Shown here: positions 7,972-48,212 of the stretch, piece by piece
Layout of the letters: every line of letters starts with the position of its first letter
Position numbering within the stretch: the first letter of the stretch is position 1
Source of the DNA: Patescibacteria group bacterium
Lineage (GTDB): Bacteria; Patescibacteriota; Minisyncoccia; Minisyncoccales; PEYH01
Direction of reading: 5' to 3'
Length of the DNA: 64,000 nt
NCBI GenBank assembly: GCA_018817645.1
Contig: JAHITK010000014.1
Location: forward strand, 9,989-73,988
Made by a program: the position numbers and the translations under genes
The notes under the pieces: model-generated
What the model was told of the DNA's origin: nothing
The model's input: the letters and a program-made list of their open reading frames with translations, nothing else
Databases searched by the model: none

Positions 7972-8050
7972 TATTTATCTGGTTGATTTTGATTCTTGTT
8001 CTTCTAACGGCCTTTCTACTAATTTAATACGACATAATTAAAAATTTATT

Positions 8051-8725
8051 TCACTCATCTTTTTTCATAAATTTGGTGGTTTCGGAATAAAGGACTAATT
8101 TTGAACCGCCGTCAACATTTTTAATGGTTAAAATTTGCTCGGTCTTGCTGATAAATTCTCCTTGCAAAAAAACGTTGCCCGCAGTTCTCCCCGGTTGATT
8201 GGAAATATCGGGCAAGGATCCGCTGTCCCTCAATGTTTGGATTGCTTGCCTCTTTTCTTCCGGAGTCATATTTTCAAATCCCGCCGGCATATTCGGCATA
8301 TTCGCCGGCGCTTGACCGGCATTGGGCATATTCGCGTTAGAGGGAGTGCCGGTGGCGTTGAGACGAAAATTTATCTGCCCGGCATTAGGAACATTGGCGA
8401 AGTTCTCGACAGAGCCGATATAAACCATATTGGCGCTAACGCTTCCGTCCGGGTTGTCGGTTCCTTCAATCATAAGGTAATCCCCTGCTTTTAAGTCCTC
8501 CGCGCTTGCTTCGGAAAATCCTTGAAGAAAGGTTTCCATTCCTCTTGCGTCGTCCGTTGTTGTCGCATTAGCCGTCTGTTGTCCGCTGATAGCAGATTTA
8601 TCATCAACGGATTTCAAACTGTTGGTCAGAAGAATTATTCCCGCGATAATCCCGACCGCCACCAAAACCGCGGGTATTATAATCGCAATTTTTAATTTTA
8701 TATTTTTAAATTTTAAAGAAAACAT
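8051..8725 (-). CDS. Hypothetical membrane-anchored/secreted protein
   Basis: ATG at 8725 (the track start at 8734 is TTG). N-terminal TM IAIIIPAVLVAVGIIAGIILL. N/A/P/M-rich low-complexity centre. Confidence 0.6.
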   Translation of the reverse strand: MFSLKFKNIKLKIAIIIPAVLVAVGIIAGIILLTNSLKSVDDKSAISGQQTANATTTDDARGMETFLQGFSEASAEDLKAGDYLMIEGTDNPDGSVSANMVYIGSVENFANVPNAGQINFRLNATGTPSNANMPNAGQAPANMPNMPAGFENMTPEEKRQAIQTLRDSGSLPDISNQPGRTAGNVFLQGEFISKTEQILTIKNVDGGSKLVLYSETTKFMKKDE

Positions 8726-8734
8726 GCCTTTCAA

Positions 8735-8797
8735 TTTTGGATTTTGGATTTTGGATTTTGAGTTTGATTTGACATTTGGATTTGGGATTTTGGATTT
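8735..8797. repeat. TTTTGGA-heptamer / TTTGACATTTGG repeat element (copy a)
   Basis: Reads ATTTTGGATTTTGGATTTTGGATTTTGAGTTTGATTTGACATTTGGATTTGGGATTTTGGATTT. Related copies at 48058, 56613, 58000 and 58556. Confidence 0.8.
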
Positions 8798-10026: not shown

Positions 10027-10057
10027 ATTTTTTTCTCCCTTAAAGCGAATATAATGT

Positions 10058-10768
10058 TTATTCTTTGATGGGCTTCATGGCTTGGGAATAAGCCGCCAAA
10101 GCATCTTCAATAATCTCTCCGTCTTTGATGGAAATTATCCTTTTTGCTCTTTCCGCGATATATCTTTCATGAGTTATCAAAACGATTGTCTGTCCTTGCC
10201 TGTTTAATTCCTGGAATGTTTTCAGCACAATATCCCCAGTTTTGCTGTCCAGGTTTCCGGTCGGTTCGTCGGCAAGAATTAAAGAAGGATTATTCACCAG
10301 GGCCCGGGCAATGGCCACTCTTTGCATCTGCCCGCCTGATAACTGGTTTGAAAGATGATAAAAGCGGGTCTCTTCTAATCCGGCGTTAAGCAAGGCCTTT
10401 TTGGCTATTTCTTCGCGCTTTTCGCGCGGAGAATTCGCATAAATTAACGGCAAGACCACATTGCGAATAACGGTTGTCCTCGGCAAAAGATTAAATGTCT
10501 GAAAAACAAATCCGATTTTCTTCTTGCGGATATCGGCTAACTCATTGTCGGAAAGATTGGCAATATCTTTACCCTCAAACAAGTATTGCCCGCTGGTGGG
10601 CGTATCAAGACATCCCAAAATATGCATCAGGGTTGATTTGCCTGAACCGGACGGCCCGATAATCGCCACAAACTCTCCTTCCTTAACGATGAAGGAAACA
10701 TCCTTTAATGCCTTGGTCTCTATTTCATCATGCTTATAAATTTTTGTAATGTTTTTAACTTCTATCAT
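10058..10768 (-). CDS. ABC transporter ATP-binding protein (MacB/LolD type)
   Basis: Walker [10 protein letters not shown], signature [15 protein letters not shown], Walker [13 protein letters not shown]. Confidence 0.9.
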
Positions 10769-10775
10769 ATATATT

Positions 10776-10920
10776 CTGCCGAGACCTGCCGAGATCAGAA
10801 TCCTGCCGAGATCAGAATCCTGCCGAGATCAGAATCCTGCCGAGATCATTTCTCGGCAACTTTTTCTCGGCAACTTTGCCGAGAAATGATCCAACTTTGC
10901 CGAGAAATGATCTCGGCAGG
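10776..10920. repeat. Array of GCCGAGA / TCTCGGC half-sites (set 1)
   Basis: CTGCCGAGATCAGAATC x3 in tandem, plus palindromes GCCGAGA-TCATT-TCTCGGC and GCCGAGA-AATGA-TCTCGGC. About 10 half-sites in 145 bp. Confidence 0.85.
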
Positions 10921-10942
10921 TGGTTTATAAATTCTCAAGAGG

Positions 10943-12736
10943 TTAACGCATTATTCTCATCATCTCTCCTCCCCCTGCGCCGGCTGAAAAACCATTGGAT
11001 GTTCCGGTGCTTGAATTATTAGAGGAAGAAGCAGAGGTCTGGATAATCACCTCATCTCCTTCGTTAAGGCCACTGGTAATTTCTGTCATTGTGTCGTTAG
11101 AAAGCCCCGCCTCCACCGCTTTCCGGCTGATTGTTCCGTCCGAAGACATAATTTCAACATACTGCTGCTCCCCTTGATATTTAACGGCGGAATTTGGAAC
11201 CAGAAGCACTCCCTGTTTGATGTTTGTCATAATCTCCGCCGAAATGCTCATATTCGGCTTTATTTTATCCTCCTGCGTATCCAGGGCTATTTTCACATCA
11301 TAACTCACTACGCCTTGGCTTACTGTCCCCAAGGTGTCAATATCCGCCACTTCTCCGGTAAGAGTCATCTCTTCAATGGCGTCAAGCGTAATGGTGGCTT
11401 TCTGGCCTAATGCCAACTGACTTACATCCACTTCGTTAAGAGTAATTTCGGCTAATTTTTGTTTGGTGATAATGGACGCCAAAACGGTTCCCGAAGAAAC
11501 GGATTGTCCTTTTGACGCATTGGCTTCAATTATTATTCCGTCAAACGGAGCCCTTACATAACAATTATCCAGCGTCTTTTTAGCGTCGGTTAAAGCGTCT
11601 TTCTTCTGTTGAACCGCAATTTCTTTGGCTCTGATTTCCAGAGCATCCGCTCCCGCTTTAAGATTTTCCAAACTCAACTCTTTTTCCTTAATGCTTCTCT
11701 CTGCCGACACAATCGTGTCTTTGGCGCTTTGAATGCTGCGTTGAACCGATAAAAGAGTAGAAAGATGGCTATTGACTTTTGAGATATATGACTTCAGTTC
11801 TGTCTGATAAGCGGTTACATCGGAGAAAATCCTCAGTCCTTTTTTGGTGCGGAAATCCACCCAATAGTCAAGCATATTTATCTCGCTTTTTATTGTTTCG
11901 GACATTGCCCGAATGGTTTGAATCGTTTCGTCTAATAAAGCGTCAATCGTCTCCTGGTCAGAAAGGCGGTTGGCTGCCCTATAACTGCTCAGATTATCAT
12001 CATATTTCTGGCGAACGGCAGAATATGCTTCCTCCGCTTTATCGGTAAATGTCAGGAATTCCGTTCTTTCGTCAATATATTGAGAGGGAATAGAATTAAT
12101 TAAGCCGTGAACATTATCGTTCCCACCGGATACATCGGGTTCGTTATCCGCTAATTCCTGGCCATATAAGACATTCTCTGTGTCTGTAATGATTGTCGGC
12201 AAATCAAGGAAGACGTTTGCCACATCATTAAAACCGTCTTCGTAAGCATTCAGAATATTTTCTTCATCCTTGGGAATGGATTCTTTGGTGGACAATAAAT
12301 CATTTTCCGCTTTTAACAATGTCAATTCATCCGGAGGATTTGACAGCTCTTGCAGGTCTAATTTTGCCGTTTCTAATGATGTTTCCGCGTCCCGCACCGC
12401 TTTTTCAGCGTCGCTGGTGTCAATTTTAAAAAGCAAAGTTCCGGCTTTGACCTCATCGCCGTTTTTAACGCTTACAGAGACTATGTCGCCTGAAACCCGG
12501 GGCTTGATGTCCGCTTGGTTGGAAACCGCTATCTGGCCGGTCCCGCTTACGGTGGTGATAAGAGTCCCTTTTTCCACAATGGCGGTAGTATAACTTATCT
12601 CCCCTTGATTTTGCGAACTCATAGTTCTGATTCCAAAATAACCCGCTAAAACAAGGATGGCGATTATGATGATGGCAATAAACTTATGCCTCATCATCCA
12701 CTTATACAAGCTCTTAGCCCTAAAAAATATTTTCAT
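10943..12736 (-). CDS. HlyD/MacA-type periplasmic adaptor (membrane fusion protein)
   Basis: N-terminal TM, long coiled-coil hairpin, beta-barrel C-domain, operon partner of the ABC/FtsX genes. ATG at 12736 chosen (track start 12787 is GTG); the start is uncertain. Confidence 0.8.
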   Translation of the reverse strand: MKIFFRAKSLYKWMMRHKFIAIIIIAILVLAGYFGIRTMSSQNQGEISYTTAIVEKGTLITTVSGTGQIAVSNQADIKPRVSGDIVSVSVKNGDEVKAGTLLFKIDTSDAEKAVRDAETSLETAKLDLQELSNPPDELTLLKAENDLLSTKESIPKDEENILNAYEDGFNDVANVFLDLPTIITDTENVLYGQELADNEPDVSGGNDNVHGLINSIPSQYIDERTEFLTFTDKAEEAYSAVRQKYDDNLSSYRAANRLSDQETIDALLDETIQTIRAMSETIKSEINMLDYWVDFRTKKGLRIFSDVTAYQTELKSYISKVNSHLSTLLSVQRSIQSAKDTIVSAERSIKEKELSLENLKAGADALEIRAKEIAVQQKKDALTDAKKTLDNCYVRAPFDGIIIEANASKGQSVSSGTVLASIITKQKLAEITLNEVDVSQLALGQKATITLDAIEEMTLTGEVADIDTLGTVSQGVVSYDVKIALDTQEDKIKPNMSISAEIMTNIKQGVLLVPNSAVKYQGEQQYVEIMSSDGTISRKAVEAGLSNDTMTEITSGLNEGDEVIIQTSASSSNNSSTGTSNGFSAGAGGGEMMRIMR

Positions 12737-12857
12737 AAAAAAATTATTAAAGATTAAAAAGAGATATTTCTTGCTGAAATATCCCACACTTTATTACTAC
12801 AACAATTACTACAACAAAAATCAAATTTTGTTTCATTTTCTCAACCTGTCTGTAAAC

Positions 12858-12962
12858 TGCCGAGATCGTTTCTCGGCGGTTTCTCGTCTCGGCAGTTTCT
12901 CGGCGCTTCTCGGCGCTCTATGGCTAATTGCCGGGATTGCCGAGATCGTTTCTCGGCGGTTT
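12858..12962. repeat. Array of GCCGAGA / TCTCGGC half-sites (set 2)
   Basis: TGCCGAGATCGTTTCTCGGCGGTT occurs twice (12858 and 12939), with extra TCTCGGC half-sites between. The right copy encodes the last residues (PPRNDLG) of the 12924-13709 ORF. Confidence 0.85.
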
Positions 12963-18458: not shown

Positions 18459-18551
18459 TTTTCCTTAGGTGCTGGCGATAATATGCCTAATAATTTATCT
18501 TTCTCATGTAAAAGAAAAAAATAGAAGAAAAAATAGAGTTGACCCCATTTT
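18459..18551. repeat. Dispersed ~85-bp repeat (copy 1) ending in AAAAAATAGAGTTGACCCCATTTT
   Basis: Matches 22168-22247 base for base, except for a 13-nt internal duplication. Confidence 0.85.
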
Positions 18552-18605
18552 TGACATTTTTGACCCCATTTTTGATGACCATTTTTGACCCCATTTTTGA
18601 TTTTC
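18539..18605. repeat. Iteron-like array of TTGAC(CC)CATTTTT units
   Basis: Reads TTGACCCCATTT TTGACATTTT TGACCCCATTTT TGATGACCATTT TTGACCCCATTTT TGATTTTCATTTTTT. Spacing is 10-13 bp. Confidence 0.7.
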
Positions 18606-22140: not shown

Positions 22141-22247
22141 AAAAATAGATTTGACACCAATTTTTATTTTTCCTTAGGTGCTGGCGATAATATGCCTAAT
22201 AATTTATCTTTCTCATGTAAAAGAAAAAATAGAGTTGACCCCATTTT
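22141..22247. repeat. Dispersed ~85-bp repeat (copy 2) flanked by a degenerate and a perfect TAGAGTTGACCCCATTTT motif
   Basis: 22168-22247 matches 18459-18551. 22141-22165 (AAAAATAGATTTGACACCAATTTTT) is a degenerate motif copy. Confidence 0.85.
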
Positions 22248-22268
22248 CCCCATTTTCCCCTTATCTGC

Positions 22269-23090: not shown

Positions 23091-23114
23091 AAAAAATAGA
23101 GTTGACCCCATTTT
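23091..23114. repeat. AAAAAATAGAGTTGACCCCATTTT motif (copy 3)
   Basis: The identical 24-mer occurs at 18528-18551 and 22224-22247. A 1-mismatch copy is at 63443-63466. Confidence 0.85.
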
Positions 23115-23159
23115 CCACATTTTCCATTTTCCCTGGCTGAACATCATTTACTTATTAAA

Positions 23160-26052: not shown

Positions 26053-27456
26053 ATGATTAAGGTATATAATTCCCTGACCAGAAAGAAAGAGATATTTAAG
26101 CCCTTGAAAGACAAAAAGGTGGCTTTTTATGTGTGCGGGCCAACGGTTTACGGGCCTGGACATATCGGGCACGCGCGGACATATATTGCTTTTGATATTA
26201 TCAGAAGATATTTAGAGCATAAAGGCTATAAAGTGAAATATGTGATGAATATTACTGACATTCACGACGACATTATTACAACGGCCCAAATGCAGAAAAC
26301 AGACATTTTTGTCTTGGGCAATAAATACACAAAACTTTTTTTGGAGGACCAAAAAAAACTTGGCATCAAGCCAGCGACTGTTTATCCAAGGGTAACAGAA
26401 CATATAAAGGAGATTATAAAATTCATTCAGGAGTTGGAGAAAAGGGGTTTTGCCTATGAGAAAAATGACTCTGTATATTTTGATGTTTCCAAGTTCAAGG
26501 ATTACGGCAAGCTTTCAGGTATCAAGGTCCAAAAAACAAAGACAGGCACAAGAGTGGAAACAGATAAATACGAGCGCGACGAAGCAGTTGATTTCGTGCT
26601 GTGGAAAAAAGCCAAAAAGGGCGAGCCATTTTGGGAGAGTCCTTGGGGGCAAGGCAGGCCGGGCTGGCATATTGAATGCTCGGTGATGATTAAAAAACTT
26701 CTGGGCGAACAGATTGACATCCACGCCGGCGCCCGGGATTTATTGTTCCCTCACCATGAAAACGAGATTGCCCAAACAGAGTCAATTGCCAAGAAAAAAC
26801 CCTTTGTAAAATACTGGCTGCACGGCGGTCTTTTGATGATAGAAGGGCAAAAAATGTCCAAGTCGCTCGACAATTTCATCACCATAGAAAAGGTTTTGGA
26901 AAAATGGGAGCCGAGGGTGCTAAGAATGTTTGTCGCTTCCAGCCATTACCAAAGCGAATTAAATTGGTCGGAGAAAAATCTTTTGCAGGCGAAGAAAAAT
27001 CTGGAGAGGATGGAGGAACTTGTAAACAAACTCAAAACTCAAAACGCAAAACGCAAAACAACAACTCAAAAATCAAAACAGATTGAGGCCATAATGCGGA
27101 AAGCAAGAAAGGGGCTTAAAGGGGTGATGGAGGATAATTTCAACACGCCGGAGGCGCTGGCAGGGCTTTTTGAAATGATAAAAGCGATAAATCCCCTGCT
27201 TGATAAAAATGAAATTGATGAAAAGCAGGCGAAAAAGATTTTGGAATTTCTGAAAGAGATTGATAAAATTTTTAACTTTATTTTTCCGTATAAAAAAGAA
27301 AGTGTTCCCGCTCACGTCAAGGAATTGGTCAAAAAACGAAAGGAATACAGAAGAAGCAAGCAATGGCAAAAGGCAGATGAAATCAGAAAACAAATTGAGC
27401 GATTAGGATTTGCGATAAAAGACACGGCCAACGGAACAGAAATAAAGAGGAAATGA
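26053..27456 (+). CDS. cysS: Cysteine--tRNA ligase
   Basis: HIGH motif (GHIGHAR), KMSKS (KMSKSLDN), Zn-binding C28/C209/H234 context. 467 aa. Confidence 0.95.
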   Translation: MIKVYNSLTRKKEIFKPLKDKKVAFYVCGPTVYGPGHIGHARTYIAFDIIRRYLEHKGYKVKYVMNITDIHDDIITTAQMQKTDIFVLGNKYTKLFLEDQKKLGIKPATVYPRVTEHIKEIIKFIQELEKRGFAYEKNDSVYFDVSKFKDYGKLSGIKVQKTKTGTRVETDKYERDEAVDFVLWKKAKKGEPFWESPWGQGRPGWHIECSVMIKKLLGEQIDIHAGARDLLFPHHENEIAQTESIAKKKPFVKYWLHGGLLMIEGQKMSKSLDNFITIEKVLEKWEPRVLRMFVASSHYQSELNWSEKNLLQAKKNLERMEELVNKLKTQNAKRKTTTQKSKQIEAIMRKARKGLKGVMEDNFNTPEALAGLFEMIKAINPLLDKNEIDEKQAKKILEFLKEIDKIFNFIFPYKKESVPAHVKELVKKRKEYRRSKQWQKADEIRKQIERLGFAIKDTANGTEIKRK

Positions 27457-29367: not shown

Positions 29368-29392
29368 TTAATTTTTAATTTTGAATTTTGAA

Positions 29393-30406
29393 TTAATCAT
29401 CATCACTCCCGGAAGGAAGCTGTTTTTCCTCTGACGACCCTTCTAATAATCGCTCTACCCTATCATCAAAACGGGATAAGAGCTTTTCAGAATCATCATA
29501 AGAAGATAAAGCGTTTTTCAAATGGCTTCCCAATTTTCTGAACACATCCATTATCTTCTTGCCATTTTGCTGTATTTTTGTCAATCTTTTTAAGATATCC
29601 TGGGTCTTTCTGCTTATCTGGACATCTTTATACCAATGACTTACCGCAGATAAAGTCAATAAGATATTATTCGGCGAGGCCAAAATTATTCTCTTGGAGC
29701 GGGCGAATCTTGCCAAGTCCTCCTCTTGCATCATTGTTATCTCGTAATAGACCGCTTCGGCTGGAATATACATAATCGCCTGATCAGTGGTCCCTTCGGA
29801 GGGCAAAATATATTTTGAGGCAATTTCTTGTATTTTTACCTTAGTATCTTCAATAAACTTCTTGCGGAACAGCTTCTTCTCCTCATCATTTTCCGCTTCA
29901 ACCATCTTCTTATAATTGTCATAGGAAAACTTTGCGTCTATCGGGAGAATCTTATTATTCGGCAATTTCAGAGCAATGTCCACCTGTTCGCCCGAAGAAA
30001 ACAAATACTGCGATTGGTAAAGTTCTTTCGGAAAATATTCGCTTAAAATGTGCTCCAAGCTTTCCTCGCCCCACTCCCCTCGCAACTTCGGCGACCGGAA
30101 TATTTCCTGAAAAGAAGAAATGCTTTTCATCACCTCTTGGACTTGCTTCATATCTTCTCGGATTTGGACCGTCTCTTTGGTAAAAGAGGAAATCTGCTGG
30201 TTCATTGCTTTGGAAGTTCCGTCAACACTGCCACGGATCTCTTTTAATTGCCCGGACATCAGGTCAGTTAATCTTCTTTCTAAATCTCTGATAGAATCAT
30301 TCTGTTTCTGGTCTATATCCCCTTTCTTACGGGTCAAGAAAAAAGCTACAGCCATCATGCCTCCTGCAATAAGTATAAACACAATAATTAATAAAGCATC
30401 ACTCAT
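29393..30406 (-). CDS. rmuC: DNA recombination protein RmuC
   Basis: N-terminal TM, coiled coil, RmuC nuclease-like core (LPIDAKFSYDNY...MYIPAEAVYYE). Confidence 0.8.
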   Translation of the reverse strand: MSDALLIIVFILIAGGMMAVAFFLTRKKGDIDQKQNDSIRDLERRLTDLMSGQLKEIRGSVDGTSKAMNQQISSFTKETVQIREDMKQVQEVMKSISSFQEIFRSPKLRGEWGEESLEHILSEYFPKELYQSQYLFSSGEQVDIALKLPNNKILPIDAKFSYDNYKKMVEAENDEEKKLFRKKFIEDTKVKIQEIASKYILPSEGTTDQAIMYIPAEAVYYEITMMQEEDLARFARSKRIILASPNNILLTLSAVSHWYKDVQISRKTQDILKRLTKIQQNGKKIMDVFRKLGSHLKNALSSYDDSEKLLSRFDDRVERLLEGSSEEKQLPSGSDDD

Positions 30407-32356: not shown

Positions 32357-32668
32357 TTATTTAGCCAATACCGTGCTTCCCCCTGCCCTTATATAATGGA
32401 CCTTATCTATTCTTTCAAAATCAAGGTTTTGGGCTATTTTATCCAGTTCCGGAATTTCTTTGACAGAGGCCAATAACGAACTGTCTGAATCGGCTTTTGG
32501 CCGGCCGGCTAATTTATCCTGAATGCCGGAAATCAAGGCGCAATTCCGGGACAGGGTCTGCATTTGCAAAACCCACACCGCCATCAATCCAATGATTGAA
32601 AAAATAGATAAGCCCCAAATGAACTTTAAGTTTATCCTGAAGGAAGATTTTTTAATCCGAGTGGTCAT
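32357..32668 (-). CDS. FtsL-like cell division protein
   Basis: 103-aa bitopic protein between rsmH and ftsI. The call rests on position only. Confidence 0.5.
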   Translation of the reverse strand: MTTRIKKSSFRINLKFIWGLSIFSIIGLMAVWVLQMQTLSRNCALISGIQDKLAGRPKADSDSSLLASVKEIPELDKIAQNLDFERIDKVHYIRAGGSTVLAK

Positions 32669-33570
32669 ATTATCTTTTTGGCTATTCTTAATTTTGCCGA
32701 CCTTGAACGAGGGTTAACGCTAATCTCCTCGAAACCGGGAATAATTGGTTTTTTCGTGATGATTTCAAAAACATGAATCTCCTGGCATCTCTTGAAAAAT
32801 CTTTTTACTTCTCCGTCCTCCAGAGAGTGAAACGAAATGACGGCGATTCTCCCCTCTTTTGCCAAGACCTCTGCCGCCTGCACCAATCCTTTCTTGACAT
32901 TTTCTATTTCAGAATTTACGGCTATGCGCAGGGCTTGAAATGTTTTGGTGGCCGGATGAAGCTTTTTCCTTTGGTAGCGCGAAGGGAGCGCTGACCAAAC
33001 GACTTCTACTAAATCAAATGTCGTGCGTATTGGTTTTTCTTTTCTTTGCTCCCCTATCTTCCGGGCGATAATCCGGGCAAATCGCTCTTCTCCATAATCC
33101 TTCAGAATCTTCTCTATATCCTCTTCGGAATAGCTGTTTATTATTTCCAGGGCAGTCAAGGAATTGGTTTGAGGATTATATCTCATATCAAGCGGTTCAT
33201 CCTCTCTGAAAGAGAATCCTCTTCCGCTTTCCTCAAAGTGCCAGCTTGACAGGCCCAAATCCATTACAATCCCGTTCACCGGCCCGAAGCTCCGTTCGGC
33301 AATAATGTTTTTAAGGTTGATATAAGAATCATTCACTAAAATCAACCTGTTTTGGATTTTGGATTTTGGATTTTGGATTTCGCCCTCCTCCTGGAATTTT
33401 CTGTAAAGTTCCGGGTCCGCTTCTATTGCCAAAACCTTCCCGTCCGGTTCAATTGCGTCCAAGAGGGCGAAAGTGTGCCCTCCTTCCCCAAAAGTGCAAT
33501 CAATGAAATTCTCGCCTGGTTTCGGGTCAAGCCATTCTATAATTTCTTTTGTAAGTACGGGCGTATGCAT
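32665..33570 (-). CDS. rsmH: 16S rRNA (cytosine1402-N4)-methyltransferase RsmH
   Basis: HTPVL...DCTFGEGGH...DLGLSS...RGFSF...PLDMR...SFHSLED. Contains a heptamer-repeat-encoded insertion EIQNPKSKIQN. Confidence 0.9.
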   Translation of the reverse strand: MHTPVLTKEIIEWLDPKPGENFIDCTFGEGGHTFALLDAIEPDGKVLAIEADPELYRKFQEEGEIQNPKSKIQNRLILVNDSYINLKNIIAERSFGPVNGIVMDLGLSSWHFEESGRGFSFREDEPLDMRYNPQTNSLTALEIINSYSEEDIEKILKDYGEERFARIIARKIGEQRKEKPIRTTFDLVEVVWSALPSRYQRKKLHPATKTFQALRIAVNSEIENVKKGLVQAAEVLAKEGRIAVISFHSLEDGEVKRFFKRCQEIHVFEIITKKPIIPGFEEISVNPRSRSAKLRIAKKII

Positions 33571-34422: not shown

Positions 34423-37400
34423 TTATAATCTTACCAATTCCGATTCCTTTTTCTTTCTCATCCAATAATAACCGGTGAAAACAAGAATTCCGCTTAATAT
34501 CAGGATAAACAATATCACCAGCCAGAAGGCCAAACTGCCGATTATTTTAACAATCTGGGAAAAGATTGTTCCAGCCGCGGCCGCGCCTCCCGCGCCTTTC
34601 AAGACCTCGATGCTTACACTGTCGCTGGTGGTTTTATCCTCTCCATAAACAACCGTGCTCAAATTGCTTAAATAAGTGGTTCCGGAAGTGAATTCGCCAG
34701 CATCGCCCACTTTGGCGTCAAAGCTTATATATTTAGATTGCTTTGGAGCCAAGGTTCCCAAACCAAACCCAGCCAGAATATTGCCCACGAACGGCGTATC
34801 ATCCACTTTCAGATTTCCTAAATAATCAAGGTTTGTCGGCAAAAAATTTTCAAGCTTAACATCGGAAATGGTTTCATTGCCGGAAGAAGCCACAATAATC
34901 AAGAATGAAAGCTTGTCTCCGGGTTCTGCTGACAGGGTTTTCTTCCAACCTTCGTCAATGCCTGACTTTTTTACCAAAACAGAGACAGCCACGGTGTCAG
35001 CCATCGGAAGTTTTACATCAACCGGGCATTCGCAAAATGTCTCATTGCAATTTACTGCCCCGTCTCCGCAATGCTGACAACTTGAACAATAGTCAGTTGA
35101 GTCCTTGCTGCAAGTTGTGCCATCGCACTTTAAGTCATGATAACATCTGTCTATGTCGCATCTGTCTAAGGTGCAGGAGTTGTCGTCCTCGCAATCCATA
35201 TATTTGCTTAAGCGCGTTCCGGAAGAATTATACCAATAGACATCATTATCATAACACTGCCTTGTCTGAATTATCGGAGTCACTGAACAAGTTGAATTAT
35301 AATTACAGGTTGAGTCGCCCACCGAACAGGTTTCATTGCTTGAACAATAGTCAGCCACTATCCAGGAAGACCAATTGCCCCAGCTTCCCCAATTGCCGTC
35401 GCATTGGGCGCTCTCTCCGGAGCAATATCTAAATCTTATTCTGGTGCTCTGCCCGACATCTGCGCCGCATCCCGCTCCCCAAGGGCAGCTGTATTGGGTT
35501 TCTGATTCGCTCTTGCAAACAGCGCTTGAACTCTTATAATTTTGCCCGTCGCAACAGGGTCCGGAAGTGCATTCCTGTTCTGCCACGCACTGGCCGTTCT
35601 TGCAGGTCTCATCGCTGGCGCATTTTTTCACAAAAGATTTCTGCAGAGATGAATTGCTGAAGCAGGAACTGCCGGAACATCCTTTGTCATAGCAAGTCCT
35701 CTCTTTATAGACGCTGTCTCCGGAGCAATAATAAGAGCTCCAGGAGGTACAAGAGTCGTCTCCGCAATCCTCATATCTGTCTTGCCTGCTGTTATTGGAA
35801 TCATACCAATAAACATCGTTGTTGTAACAGGATTTGTGGTCGTTTTGATTGTAACAAGAGTAGCAGTTGTTGCAATTATTGCAGGTATCACAGATATTGC
35901 ATCCGCAACTGGAATCATAATTGCAAGTATATTCAGCGACGCCCCCGGTGCAATACCAACTTGGCTTTTGGTTGCTGTTACAGCTTCCATAACCGCAATA
36001 AGTCGGTCCCAAAATGCTCTCAACCGGAGACCATTCCAAGCAGGAATCGGAATCATAATTTCCGCAGGTCTGCTTATGGGCGCTGTCATAACATCTTACC
36101 TGTCCGGAAAAAGCGCATTCGCTTTGGCAGGCCTGTCCGCAATCTTGCGAACAATTGTATTGATTTTCTCCGCATTCAGAATTGCAGATTCCATTTCCAC
36201 AGGAATAACACTGCGAGGAACAGGTAGAATCGCTGTATGTGCAGGTTCCGCCCGAACAATAATAGTCCCGGCGAGTACTGCCGATGCAAGTGTCAGTCCC
36301 GCAGCTTTCCGGACTTGACCATTCTAAACAGGAATCCGAGTCGTAATTTCCGCAAATTTTCTTTGAACCGCTGTCATGACAGGTTGTCTGGCCAGTTACA
36401 GCGCATTCATCCTGGCAAGTGGGTGGATTACAGCTTGAATCGCTTACGCATTTTGATTCAAATTGAGTATCGCAACTATTGGGACTGCAAGTTCTTGTCC
36501 GGGTTTGATACATTTGGCCTGAACCGCATCCATCTTGAGCGCATCCCTGATTGCTCCAAGAACTCCAATCATTGCATTGGCAAGTAGTCACGCACTGGCC
36601 ATTGCTGCAGATTTTCCCGATTGCCGAACAATCCTGATAATTTTCCCATTGATTTTGAGCAAAACAAACAGCGCCTGAACATCCTCTAACAATCTTTTTT
36701 CTTTGAACCATATTGCCAGAGCATTGATAATCGTCTGTCCAGAAATCACTGCCGCATTCGTCATATTTATCTTCTCTGGCGCTGCAGGAATCATACCAGT
36801 AAACATCATTGTCATAGCAGGACTTGTAATTGTGGGTGGTGCAAGTAGTCACGCATTGTCCATTGCTACAGACCTTGCCATCGTCAGCGCAATTATATTC
36901 ATTCACCCACTCGTTATAGTTATAGCAAGAAGAACCGGAACATCCTTTCTTGTTCTTTTCTCTTTGAACCCAGTCCCCGGAACATTGGTAATTAGTAGTC
37001 CAGGAATCGCTCCCGCAGTTCTGGCTGGTTTGCCACACTGCATTGGAAAAACAAGAAGCATTGGAGCATCCTTTATCTAACCATTTTCTTTGTAAAGTGT
37101 TTCCTGAACATTGATAATCGCTGGTCCAGCCGCTGGTTCCGCATTCGCTGGATTTATCCTCTCTCGCCTGACAGGAGTTGTACCAGTAAACATCATTGTC
37201 ATAGCAGGACTTGTAATTGTGGGTGGTGCAAGTAGTCACGCATTGTCCATTGCTGCAGGTTTTTCCACTGGTTGAACAATTCTGATAATTTTCCCATTGA
37301 TTGTAATTATAGCAAGAAGAACCGGAACATCCTTTCTTGTTCTTTTCTCTTTGGATCCAATCCCCGGAACATCTGTAATTGTCGGTCCAGGAGTCGGAAC

Positions 37401-37953
37401 CGCAATCCCCGTAATCTTTCCAAATTGTATTGCTGAAACAGGAACTCCCAGAGCATCCTTTATCCAGCCACTTCCTTTGCAAATGGCTCCCGGAACATTG
37501 ATAATCGTTGGCCCAACCGGTAGAGCCGCAGTCCTGATATATCCCTTCTCTGGCGCCGCAGGAATTATACCAATAGACATCATTATTATAGCAGGCCCGA
37601 TGATCTTGAGGGGTGCAAGAATTCACGCACATCCCATTCTGGCAGACAGTGCCGGAAAGACAACTCATAGAAGAGGACCATTCTAAACAGACATCGCAGT
37701 CATAGTTTCCGCAGGCCTTGTAATGAGTGGAATCGGTGCAAGCTCTTTGGTCATAATATGAGCATTCGTCGGAGCAACTTGTGCCGCATCCCCATTGCCC
37801 ATAAACCACATAACTCTTAGAAAAATTAGAGTCATCTCCATTAGAATCAAAATGCGCCTTTATTAAAGGTTGGATTAAAAATGCGAGAGCAAAAAGAGTG
37901 ATAACAATAAAAAATACTCTTAATTTCTTCATATTTTTTGTGCCGTATGGCAC
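34423..37953 (-). CDS. Giant cysteine-rich repeat surface protein with C-terminal membrane anchor
   Basis: 1176 aa. Signal peptide, 3 tandem 129-aa Cys-rich modules (387-bp DNA period, e.g. 36811 vs 37198), WSxWS/CGxG...RTRTC thrombospondin-type-1-like motif, Ig-like C-domain, terminal TM + RKKK. Confidence 0.8.
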   Translation of the reverse strand: MPYGTKNMKKLRVFFIVITLFALAFLIQPLIKAHFDSNGDDSNFSKSYVVYGQWGCGTSCSDECSYYDQRACTDSTHYKACGNYDCDVCLEWSSSMSCLSGTVCQNGMCVNSCTPQDHRACYNNDVYWYNSCGAREGIYQDCGSTGWANDYQCSGSHLQRKWLDKGCSGSSCFSNTIWKDYGDCGSDSWTDNYRCSGDWIQREKNKKGCSGSSCYNYNQWENYQNCSTSGKTCSNGQCVTTCTTHNYKSCYDNDVYWYNSCQAREDKSSECGTSGWTSDYQCSGNTLQRKWLDKGCSNASCFSNAVWQTSQNCGSDSWTTNYQCSGDWVQREKNKKGCSGSSCYNYNEWVNEYNCADDGKVCSNGQCVTTCTTHNYKSCYDNDVYWYDSCSAREDKYDECGSDFWTDDYQCSGNMVQRKKIVRGCSGAVCFAQNQWENYQDCSAIGKICSNGQCVTTCQCNDWSSWSNQGCAQDGCGSGQMYQTRTRTCSPNSCDTQFESKCVSDSSCNPPTCQDECAVTGQTTCHDSGSKKICGNYDSDSCLEWSSPESCGTDTCIGSTRRDYYCSGGTCTYSDSTCSSQCYSCGNGICNSECGENQYNCSQDCGQACQSECAFSGQVRCYDSAHKQTCGNYDSDSCLEWSPVESILGPTYCGYGSCNSNQKPSWYCTGGVAEYTCNYDSSCGCNICDTCNNCNNCYSCYNQNDHKSCYNNDVYWYDSNNSRQDRYEDCGDDSCTSWSSYYCSGDSVYKERTCYDKGCSGSSCFSNSSLQKSFVKKCASDETCKNGQCVAEQECTSGPCCDGQNYKSSSAVCKSESETQYSCPWGAGCGADVGQSTRIRFRYCSGESAQCDGNWGSWGNWSSWIVADYCSSNETCSVGDSTCNYNSTCSVTPIIQTRQCYDNDVYWYNSSGTRLSKYMDCEDDNSCTLDRCDIDRCYHDLKCDGTTCSKDSTDYCSSCQHCGDGAVNCNETFCECPVDVKLPMADTVAVSVLVKKSGIDEGWKKTLSAEPGDKLSFLIIVASSGNETISDVKLENFLPTNLDYLGNLKVDDTPFVGNILAGFGLGTLAPKQSKYISFDAKVGDAGEFTSGTTYLSNLSTVVYGEDKTTSDSVSIEVLKGAGGAAAAGTIFSQIVKIIGSLAFWLVILFILILSGILVFTGYYWMRKKKESELVRL

Positions 37954-47345: not shown

Positions 47346-47375
47346 TAGCAGGAACGACCTTATGCGTTCCTGCTA
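47346..47375 (+). terminator. Intrinsic terminator after the 47143 mini-gene
   Basis: TAGCAGGAACG-ACCTTATG-CGTTCCTGCTA followed by TTCTTTTT. Confidence 0.7.
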
Positions 47376-48053
47376 TTCTTTTTCTACTAAGGGGACAAAG
47401 ACAAATCCTGGATATTCTTCTTTTTCAAAAGACCCATCCGCTTTTTTAGTAAAAGCGCAAATGGAGTTATTTATCGGCATCACTATTTTACCGCCGATTT
47501 TAACCTGTTTTTCCCAAGCGGAGGGCATACTGTCCGCCGAAGCCGAACAAAGAATCCTGTCAAACGGAGCTTCCTGCGGATAGCCCTTTCTTCCGTCTCC
47601 TAAGATAAATTCTAACCTGCCTTGCTTAATAAATCCATACTTCCCGGCATTTCTTTTTCCGAGTTCTTTTAATTCAGGGACAATCTCAATAGCAATCACC
47701 TTGCCATTAATTTGAGATTTGGAATTTTGGATTTGTTTGGGATTTGGGAATTGGGAATTGAGAATTCCCTTCTGGCTTACTATGTAAGCCAGAAGGGCGC
47801 TTGTCCAGCCGGAACCAGAGCCGACATCAAGAATTTTGTTCCCGGCTTTGGGCCCTAATTTCTCCAGCATAAAAGCCACTACTAATGGCTGGGAAATCGT
47901 CTGCCCATAGCCGATTGGAAACGCCTCATCCACCTCCGCCATCTCTTTATAGCCATCGCCTAAAAAATCCTCGCGTTTAACCGTTTGAAACGCTTTGATA
48001 ATTTCCGGGGTCTTTAGCCAACCCTGTTTAATTAAATCATCTGTTAAAGACAT
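47373..48053 (-). CDS. pcm: Protein-L-isoaspartate O-methyltransferase
   Basis: GQTISQPLVVAFMLEKL, VLDVGSGSGWTSALLA. Carries a repeat-encoded insertion ILNSQFPNPKQIQNSKSQIN. Confidence 0.85.
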   Translation of the reverse strand: MSLTDDLIKQGWLKTPEIIKAFQTVKREDFLGDGYKEMAEVDEAFPIGYGQTISQPLVVAFMLEKLGPKAGNKILDVGSGSGWTSALLAYIVSQKGILNSQFPNPKQIQNSKSQINGKVIAIEIVPELKELGKRNAGKYGFIKQGRLEFILGDGRKGYPQEAPFDRILCSASADSMPSAWEKQVKIGGKIVMPINNSICAFTKKADGSFEKEEYPGFVFVPLVEKE

Positions 48054-48057
48054 GTCT

Positions 48058-48212
48058 TAAATCTCAATGTCAAAATCCCAATGTCAAATCAAATCCAAAT
48101 GACTCAATGTCAAAAGAATACATTTTTTCAATTTGGATTTTGGATTTTGAGCTTGATTTGACATTTGAGCTTTGGGTTTTGGGTTTTGGGTTTTGGATTT
48201 TGGATTTTGAAT
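48058..48212. repeat. TTTTGGA-heptamer / TTTGACATTTG repeat element (copy b, inverted pair)
   Basis: Reverse-type arm (AATGTCAAAATCCCAATGTCAAATCAAATCCAAATGAC), a spacer, then the forward arm (TTTGGATTTTGGATTTTGAGCTTGATTTGACATTTGAGCTTTGGGTTTTGGG...). Confidence 0.85.

Follow-up and report, generated by a model that had tools for sequence, protein, structure and literature searches.

The stretch of DNA analyzed here (hereafter the window) comprises 64,000 nt of contig JAHITK010000014.1 from a Patescibacteria group bacterium. Its GC content is ~41%, approximately 90% of it is coding, and the minus strand predominates. Four housekeeping genes of the window, rsmH, pcm, cysS, and trmD, carry tandem arrays of 7-nt units (heptamers) within their coding sequences, and arrays of the same class lie between genes, some of them in the form of long hairpins (Table 1). 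An earlier reading made without database searches (the sequence-only reading) had reported heptamer tracts in these four enzymes; all four are present at the positions it gave, with a period of 7 nt.

Table 1. Heptamer tracts, their host genes, and the intergenic arrays of the window.
Feature	Position	Strand	Description
rsmH gene	32665..33570	-	301 aa, 16S rRNA m4C1402 methyltransferase; PF01795 match; best structure 1m6y, E 5.5e-65
rsmH array	33350..33380	-	perfect (TCCAAAA) x4.4 on the coding strand, 31 nt, in frame, EIQNPKSKIQN, residues about 64-74
pcm gene	47373..48053	-	226 aa, protein-L-isoaspartate O-methyltransferase
pcm insert	47706..47768	-	63 nt = nine degenerate heptamers, 21 residues GILNSQFPNPKQIQNSKSQIN
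cysS gene	26053..27456	+	467 aa; best structure 8qhp, E 5.9e-144
cysS tract	27028..27080	+	CTCAAAA/CGCAAAA-type heptamers x ~7.6, read in frame as KLKTQNAKRKTTTQKSKQ
trmD gene	54898..55628	-	N-terminal domain in one frame from 55628 to the array; C-terminal domain (...SIEK*) in the -1 frame
trmD linker array	55078..55103	-	(TTCAAAA) x3.7, one unit short, shifts the frame by -1
trmD palindrome	54976..55002	-	perfect CCAAAATTTCGCagaGCGAAATTTTGG, in a second in-frame insert, C-terminal domain
Single-arm intergenic array	8734..8797	-	TCCAAAA-type x9.6; follows the stop codon of a MacB-like permease gene and precedes the next gene start
Intergenic array between rmuC and rplU	29368..29394	-	TTCAAAA-type, unit as in trmD
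Heptamer hairpin upstream of pcm, directly adjacent	48059..48209	-	A-rich 5' arm, complementary T-rich 3' arm; -32 kcal/mol, z -3.0
Intergenic array	53862..53892	+	(AAATGCA/AAACGCA) x4.4, unit related to the cysS tract (CGCAAAA-like)
Heptamer hairpin between rnc and rpsP	56613..56726	-	-40 kcal/mol, z -6.0 (folded segment 56610-56735)
Heptamer hairpin between rpmF and nusB	57999..58118	-	-37 kcal/mol, z -4.7 (folded segment 57995-58122)
Weaker heptamer element downstream of a 718-aa gene	58560..58650	-	fold z -1.4, not significant

Tandem arrays in the window were located with Tandem Repeats Finder (TRF) and with a period scan of our own. The two approaches gave 11-13 arrays of period 7, among them all four coding tracts. 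The count of 11 compares with a mean of 0.01 and a maximum of 1 in 100 dinucleotide-preserving shuffles of the window, and arrays of the other periods (4-6 and 8-12) numbered 0-2 each. Per 100 kb, the window has 17 period-7 arrays; across 900 kb of loci from related Parcubacteria, the density is 10.8 per 100 kb, with at most 1.1 arrays per 100 kb for each of periods 4-6 and 8-12. In loci from other phyla, the density of period-7 arrays was 2.4 per 100 kb. Arrays of this class are abundant throughout the Parcubacteria clade and keep strictly to a period of 7 nt.

The loci of close relatives (L082-L090) were obtained by exact-protein look-up; they are syntenic with the window, and their RsmH proteins share 85-88% identity with that of the window. 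A search of contigs with the RsmH alignment returned, among the matches listed, mostly distant phyla (best identity, 57%), and these were used as the control set. A cyanobacterial origin of the window was considered and rejected, since the HIP1 motif (GCGATCGC) is absent from the window and the proteins are those of Parcubacteria. An Rfam scan of the window recovered only tRNAs and the L10 leader, with no match at the repeats.

The units were compared among the four genes. The rsmH array consists of TCCAAAA, the pcm insert of ATTCCCA, AATCCCA, and TCCAAAA, the cysS tract of CTCAAAA and CGCAAAA, and the trmD array of TTCAAAA. The sequence-only reading had described one and the same heptamer in all four enzymes. 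This holds only loosely, because the units differ from gene to gene; all four coding unit types do recur in intergenic arrays of the window (TCCAAAA, for example, at 8734-8797, 48132-48209, and 58600-58617), and its assignment of the inserts to the DNA-level heptamers of the intergenic class is borne out. The best cross-matches between arrays of the window are 18-31 nt of simple repeat. The rsmH array matches intergenic positions 8734-8760 over 25-26 identical nucleotides, the trmD array is 95.7% identical to 29370-29392 across 23 nt, and the 5' arm of an intergenic hairpin (58058-58087) shares 90% identity across 31 nt with the latter half of the pcm insert.

In rsmH, the array is translated as part of the peptide EIQNPKSKIQNR. 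The loop is 9 residues longer than that of Escherichia coli RsmH, close to the figure of about 10 residues given in the sequence-only reading, and 6 residues longer than that of Thermotoga maritima RsmH. In the AlphaFold model of RsmH, the mean predicted local distance difference test (pLDDT) score is 90.3, and residues 61-70, with a score of ~60, form the block of lowest confidence. These residues are modeled as coil, preceded by a helix (53-62) and followed by a strand (76-80). The RNA of the tract remains unpaired upon folding (z +2.2). In the close relatives, the RsmH loop always carries a heptamer tract, which is interrupted or degenerate: the array of L082 is broken by a 33-nt non-repeat block, the window sequence being that of L082 minus those 33 nt; the array of L085 has decayed; and L088 has another variant. 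Most RsmH homologues with 58-67% identity have a loop of ~11 residues, and their loop peptides are translations of other heptamers, such as TKNQKPK from ACCAAAA and IKNQKSK from ATCAAAA. A further loop peptide, LSIINDQLS, would fit TTATCAA-like units, as judged from the peptide. At 57% identity, locus L002 has an AAAAATC array in the DNA of the RsmH loop. The rsmH genes from other phyla in the control set show weak two-copy traces at most, and none of these is located at the RsmH loop.

We also noted that RsmH-loop arrays can be interrupted by non-repeat sequence. The 33-nt block of L082 lies within 10190-10290 of that locus, and in L025 the palindromes CCGCCGCGGCGG and CCCGAGTACTCGGG, both GC-rich, break up the array. 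These interruptions suggest that small insertions of a second kind land within arrays.

The pcm insert reads, unit by unit, AATTCTC, AATTCCC, AATTCCC, AAATCCC, AAACAAA, TCCAAAA, TTCCAAA, TCTCAAA, and TTAAT. It lies between the helix that follows the S-adenosylmethionine (AdoMet)-binding glycine motif and the strand GKVIAIE, as the sequence-only reading had placed it, and all matched solved structures of protein-L-isoaspartate methyltransferase (PIMT) lack it. The AlphaFold model of Pcm has a mean pLDDT of 90.6, with values below 50 at residues 97-113; these are coil, with a helix (83-92) before and a strand (118-123) after them. From the topology of the Rossmann-type methyltransferase fold, the RsmH and Pcm inserts would both be situated on the side facing away from the cofactor site, where a strand has its N-terminal edge.

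The distribution of the pcm insert was examined among homologues. The nearest Pcm relatives (68-76% identity, 204-208 aa) have no insert, whereas many homologues with only 60-66% identity have an alignable insert with the consensus SQKGNPKSEILNPKQIPNSKSQIPNGKV. At the DNA level, the pcm genes of L171 and L172 have the same internal junction as the window (AAAC/AACC-AAATCCAAAAT), while the units flanking the junction are homogenized within each lineage (AATTCCC in the window, AAATCCC in L171, and AAATCCG in L172). Given that the insert is alignable at 60-66% identity with an identical internal DNA junction, it is old and not a fresh arrival; hence, its absence in the nearest relatives looks like loss. 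Comparison of the filled site in the window with the empty site in L093 revealed a shared GG only, with no target-site duplication beyond it and no terminal inverted repeats. In the pcm gene of locus L167 (locus positions ~8030-8060), a short perfect palindrome (TTGCACGGGTTcAACCCGTGCAA) stands in frame at the exact site of the heptamer insert of the window.

The cysS tract is located in a helix-connecting stretch whose length varies among cysteinyl-tRNA synthetases (CysRS). The structure 8qhp is about equally long there, indicating that the tract is not a clean insert, and Coxiella CysRS (3tqo) is ~13 residues shorter. All four close relatives checked have heptamer tracts at the site, with differing unit variants and lengths.

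In trmD, the tract had been reported as in frame, and this is false for the window. The frame that enters the array continues into unrelated sequence resembling no TrmD, and it is the -1 frame that encodes the true C-terminal domain; when the two frames are joined, the protein aligns with solved TrmD structures through YPQYTRP and LLSGNH. The array is positioned in the interdomain linker. The product of the window is annotated as a protein of 231 aa (NCBI MBU1045956.1). A second contig of the same genome (ENA ERZ27247128:k141_771363) contains an extra AATTCAA at window position 55077 and encodes an intact TrmD of 245 aa. The TTCAAAA unit is thus present in 3 copies out of frame in the window and in 4 copies in frame in the ENA contig. 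Over 64 kb, the two sequences are identical except at two places, both of them tandem repeats: relative to the ENA contig, the window has 7 nt less at the trmD array (55077) and 34 nt more (two 17-nt units) at 10785-10848. The RsmH and Pcm proteins of the window are identical to those on the ENA contig, and the rsmH, pcm, and cysS tracts do not differ between independent assemblies. The Logan contig L181 (run SRR6514274) has at least 4 units of the trmD array and ends inside it. All 30 related trmD genes checked are in a single frame, and that of L093 has a matching array with exactly one unit more than the window. We conclude that the window carries a frameshift allele of trmD that is one unit short and cuts off the C-terminal domain. 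This allele is either a variant of the population or a product of assembly. The GGAGAGT sequence on both sides of the array belongs to the coding sequence in relatives too and does not count as a target-site duplication. The in-frame insert of the C-terminal domain that bears the palindrome is common to L091 and L092 and absent from L093.

We next compared 76 distinct related trmD genes. Their period-7 arrays occur in two places only, namely the loop at residues 70-89 (17 arrays) and the interdomain linker and just beyond it (~20 arrays); outside these hot spots, the N-terminal domain of the 76 genes contains no array. The units in the linker include TTCAAAA, ATACAAG, CAAATTT, TTAAAAA, AAGAATC, AAATACC, TACGGAC, and CAAGAGA, and those in the loop include AAAAGTC, AAATCAC, AAATCTC, AAAAACC, AAAACAC, AAAAATC, CGCAAAG, and AGGTCAA. 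The two hot spots together hold ~15 unrelated units. One pair of loci, L096 and L100, is 98.5-100% identical over 20 kb and diverges only across trmD and its downstream flank (positions ~10040-11200, ~1.2 kb), the linker units being ATACAAG in one and CAAATTT in the other. Switching of units in place was considered for this pair and rejected, because the divergence is confined to ~1.2 kb around trmD and has the look of a recombination tract.

Given these distributions, a recent arrival of the repeats, as the sequence-only reading had implied, is not supported. The sites are old: the Pcm insert is shared with homologues of 60-66% identity, RsmH and CysS tracts occur in all close relatives, and the TrmD loops are used recurrently. 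The comparison with orthologs that the same reading had proposed gave a divided answer, in that the segments are ancestral in position, contrary to its expectation, yet the relatives carry DNA-level repeats in them. Its suggestion that the repeats are prone to slippage agrees with the one-unit difference in trmD between assemblies, with a 7-nt indel in an intergenic array between L139 and L141, and with the lineage-specific homogenization of units. Its placement of the tracts in exposed segments is likewise supported, RsmH and Pcm having low-pLDDT coil and TrmD an interdomain linker there. The sites last while their units change, and sequences that are identical in all other respects can differ in copy number by one unit.

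How the arrays are distributed between coding and intergenic DNA was determined in the related loci. Although ~90% of the DNA is coding, only 41 of 108 arrays lie well inside long open reading frames (ORFs). Almost all of these (39/41) are A-rich on the coding strand, and one of the two exceptions, L138, resembles a spurious antisense ORF. Among 36 distinct coding arrays, 24 are free of stop codons in all frames of the coding strand, and only 9 would be so if reversed. By comparison, 32 of 54 intergenic arrays have stops on both strands. A 7-nt repeat crosses all three frames within three units, so a filter against stop codons follows from the genetic code, and this filter explains the orientation bias without any preference in insertion. 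The coding copies are a filtered subset with respect to coding-strand composition, absence of stops, short length, and location in loops. In relatives, arrays lie in other genes as well, namely those for MurB, RNase HII, a Mur ligase, and a class-I aminoacyl-tRNA synthetase. The window itself has a fifth gene with translated heptamers, that of a hypothetical protein of 223 aa, whose N-terminus (MFSLKFKNIKLKI...) is specified by (AATTTTA) x4.3 at 8687-8717 (+).

Between genes, the hairpins are long and imperfect and directly follow stop codons. Their 5' arm consists of A-rich heptamers (AAATCCAAAATCCAAATGTCAAA...) and their 3' arm of the complement. In contrast, the coding tracts are single arms and are unstructured as RNA in folding, and the single-arm intergenic array at 8734-8797 does not fold either. 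Pairing of the coding arrays with a nearby complementary arm in the mRNA was considered and dropped, because the arrays fold as single strands. At 56600-56615, 58000-58040, and 8722-8734, the hairpins or arrays stop ~10 nt or less before the next start codon, and no Shine-Dalgarno sequence is evident at these ends. The repeat near these start codons may act as a leader for the cistron that follows. Heptamer arrays in inverted pairs were also seen elsewhere, in Nostoc (L080, 11297-11467) and in L043 (4572-4645 and 9820-9933), L058, L014, and L069; the hosts other than Nostoc are metagenome-assembled genomes (MAGs) labeled Pyrinomonadaceae, Deltaproteobacteria, and Acidobacteriota. Heptamer hairpins are therefore not limited to cyanobacteria and the Candidate Phyla Radiation (CPR).

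Taken together, the tracts are probably A-rich heptanucleotide microsatellites, similar to the short tandemly repeated repetitive (STRR) elements of cyanobacteria, that are renewed by slippage and filtered into permissive loops. In-gene arrays would form locally and be renewed there, each step of replication slippage or unequal exchange amounting to 7 nt. Selection would then remove the changes that break the frame or disrupt the fold; the filter itself is seen in the arrays, and selection is its presumed cause. The surviving arrays are A-rich on the coding strand and mostly free of stops in three frames, have about 5 units or fewer and a net length divisible by 3, and lie within loops or linkers that tolerate extra residues. 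Because 7 nt do not make a whole number of codons, translation passes through all three frames along an array, and the resulting peptides have a 7-residue period (SKIQNPK, FKIQNSK, and LKTQNSK); they are predicted to be disordered. The array sites would be long-lived hot spots and not fresh insertions. Such a site would carry a cost, since slippage by one unit is enough to shift the frame, as in the window trmD, with 3 units instead of 4. Between genes, arrays stand singly or as inverted pairs that fold into long hairpins after stop codons.

Several observations weigh against this interpretation. First, slippage is deduced from sequence comparison, and the one-unit difference between assemblies could reflect the way an assembler or curator handled the repeat. 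Second, the near-identical genomes L082/083/084 and L088/089/090 show no change in copy number over 14-20 kb, so that over very short times the arrays do not behave as hypermutable. Third, the Pcm insert retains residues (NPK..QI.NSK) that are recognizable in homologues of 60-66% identity. Selection could have acted here on the peptide, or on a motif in the DNA or RNA, whereas a purely neutral view of tolerated junk predicts no such retention. In addition, the likeness between half of the pcm insert and a hairpin arm leaves room for exchange between arrays. Finally, the microsatellite model gives no reason for the preference for 7 nt or for its sharing by several phyla.

The retained residues bear on the alternative that the tracts are kept for a function. 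K/Q/N-rich disordered loops might aid the enzymes, for example in RNA binding by RsmH, CysRS, and TrmD, or the A-rich motif in RNA or DNA might itself be a signal that, for example, binds a protein or enhances translation. Position and length are indeed kept over long distances (the ~11-residue RsmH loop and the Pcm consensus), three of the four hosts act on RNA, and the coding arrays are unstructured as RNA. However, Pcm does not act on RNA, and the hosts in relatives extend to MurB, Mur ligase, and RNase HII. Peptides at the same site vary widely (KIKNLKLKI, QDTKYKIQDT, KSKVKSQ, and YGLRTTD, the would-be product of TACGGAC), and the feature that they have in common is the 7-nt period of the DNA and not a property of the peptide. 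Moreover, many close relatives do without the tract (a Pcm of 204 aa; TrmD linkers SAGGG and STGDK), and the model confidence in the inserts is very low. We regard a selected function as unlikely.

We wondered whether the coding tracts could instead be copies, or single arms, of a mobile or selfish palindromic element that resides between genes and was pasted into the coding sequences. The unit types shared with intergenic arrays (the rsmH, trmD, and pcm cross-matches) are consistent with such movement, as are the length of the Pcm insert, whose 63 nt correspond roughly to one hairpin arm, and its absence from the nearest relatives. However, matches among short perfect repeats are poorly informative, and the age of the Pcm insert, given its homologues at 60-66% identity and the junction AAAC-AAATCCAAAAT, speaks against a copy recently pasted in. 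The empty-site comparison at pcm yielded neither a target-site duplication beyond GG nor terminal inverted repeats, each gene has its own unit with no common element body, and ~15 unrelated units occupy orthologous loops across lineages. No transposase gene and no gene resembling a REP-associated tyrosine transposase (RAYT) turned up, although no systematic search of the window was made. The selfish colonization put forward in the sequence-only reading is not supported, and we consider a mobile element quite improbable.

A different proposal addresses the preference for 7 nt directly. A dedicated process that measures 7 nt might make and maintain the arrays genome-wide in Parcubacteria, and perhaps in cyanobacteria and the other phyla that have inverted heptamer pairs, with the arrays in essential genes such as trmD acting as reversible frame switches or regulators of dosage and not as debris that is tolerated. 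Candidates for such a process are slippage of a polymerase or primase by a fixed length, a templated repeat-adding activity, and a protein that binds DNA or RNA in a 7-nt register. We see this as a speculative proposal with a low chance of being correct.

The two trmD alleles raise the more specific possibility that the array is a reversible ON/OFF phase switch, or that the 3-unit allele is expressed by a -1 ribosomal slip on A_AAA. The 3-unit and 4-unit alleles do occur on otherwise identical backgrounds, and the heptanucleotide repeat of neuO operates as a switch of this kind (PMC13001214). With regard to recoding, the overlap of the frames is limited to the array, and TCA-AAA would permit re-pairing of tRNA-Lys one base back. 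However, a canonical X_XXY_YYZ site is lacking, the one strong hairpin starts 76 nt beyond the array's 3' end (55002 vs 55078), which is not a stimulatory spacing, and the single frame of all 30 relatives means that there is no conserved recoding signal. Programmed frameshifting at trmD was dropped on account of these relatives. As for phase variation, trmD has a housekeeping role and is essential in those bacteria in which this has been tested; it is not a surface or accessory gene. The 3-4 units are far below the length of typical phase-variable tracts, and the shorter allele may have arisen in assembly or represent a minority of the population. A contingency role of either kind is very unlikely. 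Lastly, we give practically no credence to chance or artefact, that is, ordinary low-complexity coding of an AT-rich genome (~41% GC, with A-rich K/N/Q codons) or assembly noise (two tandem repeats differ between assemblies), in view of the excess over dinucleotide shuffles (11 arrays vs 0.01), its restriction to period 7 and not 4-6 or 8-12, the perfect rsmH array of 31 nt, the identity of the rsmH, pcm, and cysS tracts in independent assemblies, and the arrays at corresponding sites in relatives from other samples.

The window contains further repeats and gene clusters that are separate from the heptamers. Arrays with periods of 9-21 nt (10776-10912 and 12871-12946) flank an HlyD-like membrane-fusion gene (10943-12787) and are built on CTGCCGAGA on one side and on its complement, TCTCGGCAG, on the other. 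An 8-nt tandem array, (TTAATTGT) x18.5, lies between nusB and rnc (57442-57590) and forms a class distinct from the heptamers. Another local family consists of intergenic repeats of the TTGACCCCATTT or CCCCATTTT type with periods of 9-12 and 25 (18539-18601, 22239-22260, and 23108-23132). A 387-nt repeat x2.1 (36771-37595) is situated inside a 1176-aa ORF (34423-37953) with a weak DUF11 match only, and the L083 and L084 contigs end in the ortholog of this ORF. By Pfam matches, a MjaI-like restriction enzyme gene adjoins an N4/N6 DNA methyltransferase gene at 52022-53611, and several toxin-antitoxin pairs of the nucleotidyltransferase/HEPN type are found near the end of the window (60816-63282).

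If the microsatellite interpretation is correct, STRR-like heptamers extend from cyanobacteria to the CPR and are translated there inside core enzymes. It would provide a simple DNA-level account of many lineage-specific K/Q/N-rich loops in the proteins of these organisms. It would also be a warning for annotation, since a 7-nt repeat within a gene is a frameshift hazard, as illustrated by the TrmD of 231 aa and that of 245 aa in public assemblies. Finally, with ~15 units in the same two TrmD loops, the old question of "why seven?" would become testable in a second, very different bacterial group.

We compared the heptamer arrays with known repeat systems. Repetitive extragenic palindromic (REP) sequences, REPINs, and miniature inverted-repeat transposable elements (MITEs) resemble the intergenic partners in the window, which are also hairpin-forming repeats between genes. 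The difference is that the arms in the window are tandem heptamers, with neither a conserved element sequence nor defined ends; a near-identical element body at unrelated sites, as in MITEs or REP-type elements, was not found, each gene having its own unit. In AT-rich genomes such as that of Plasmodium falciparum, low-complexity N/K-rich inserts with A-rich codons are driven by slippage and tolerated in surface loops of conserved housekeeping enzymes. Those inserts are mostly homopolymeric or codon-based, and they have no strict 7-nt period shared with intergenic hairpins.

The tandem repeats of Borgs, which as amino acid tandem repeats (aaTRs) reach into proteins, are perfect nucleotide repeats that evolve fast, have independent origins at many sites, occur inside and outside ORFs with an A bias, and add disordered regions to proteins (PMC9879509). 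The inserts of the window are also predicted to be disordered (Pcm residues 97-113 with pLDDT <50 and RsmH residues 61-70 with ~60). However, the in-ORF units of Borgs are always divisible by three (PMC9879509), whereas the units here have 7 nt and keep the frame through the net length only. In addition, Borg units are nearly all unique, and here the period is fixed.

The neuO gene of E. coli K1 has a 7-nt repeat within its ORF that is read in three frames, and its product requires a number of repeats that keeps the frame, a number altered by strand slippage (PMC13001214). The 3- and 4-unit alleles of trmD are formally equivalent to OFF and ON states, the unit number setting the frame. However, neuO, which is used as a switch, is an accessory gene carried by a phage, and its 3-53 repeats lie at the 5' end. 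The arrays of the window are short (3-5 units) and internal and are located in core enzymes, in which an OFF state should be harmful, and the relatives are all in frame.

The closest resemblance is to STRR sequences, which are 7-bp units in tandem with hairpins between cistrons; no function has been established for them, the suggestions being that they stabilize transcripts or couple translation (PMC2670836). The STRR sequences of filamentous cyanobacteria and the arrays of the window are alike in being 7-bp tandem repeats that are dispersed, multicopy, often intergenic, and capable of forming hairpins. The Nostoc locus L080 has inverted AAAATCT/AAAATCC arrays, a unit that is also present in the window. 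An STRR sequence is reportedly found inside an essential gene, that of RNase P RNA, according to the title of a 1997 article by Vioque. The classical STRR units are CCCCAGT, TTGGTCA, and CAACAGT. In the literature searched, which was not exhaustive, we found no description of translated heptamer arrays in housekeeping genes of the CPR and nothing specific on heptamer or tandem repeats in Patescibacteria/CPR. The present system differs from STRR sequences in that its host belongs to the Patescibacteria (Parcubacteria) and is not a heterocyst-forming cyanobacterium, and in that its units are NCAAAAN and not the classical STRR1-3. It differs further in that the arrays of the window are also translated, in protein-coding housekeeping genes and at recurrent loop hot spots.

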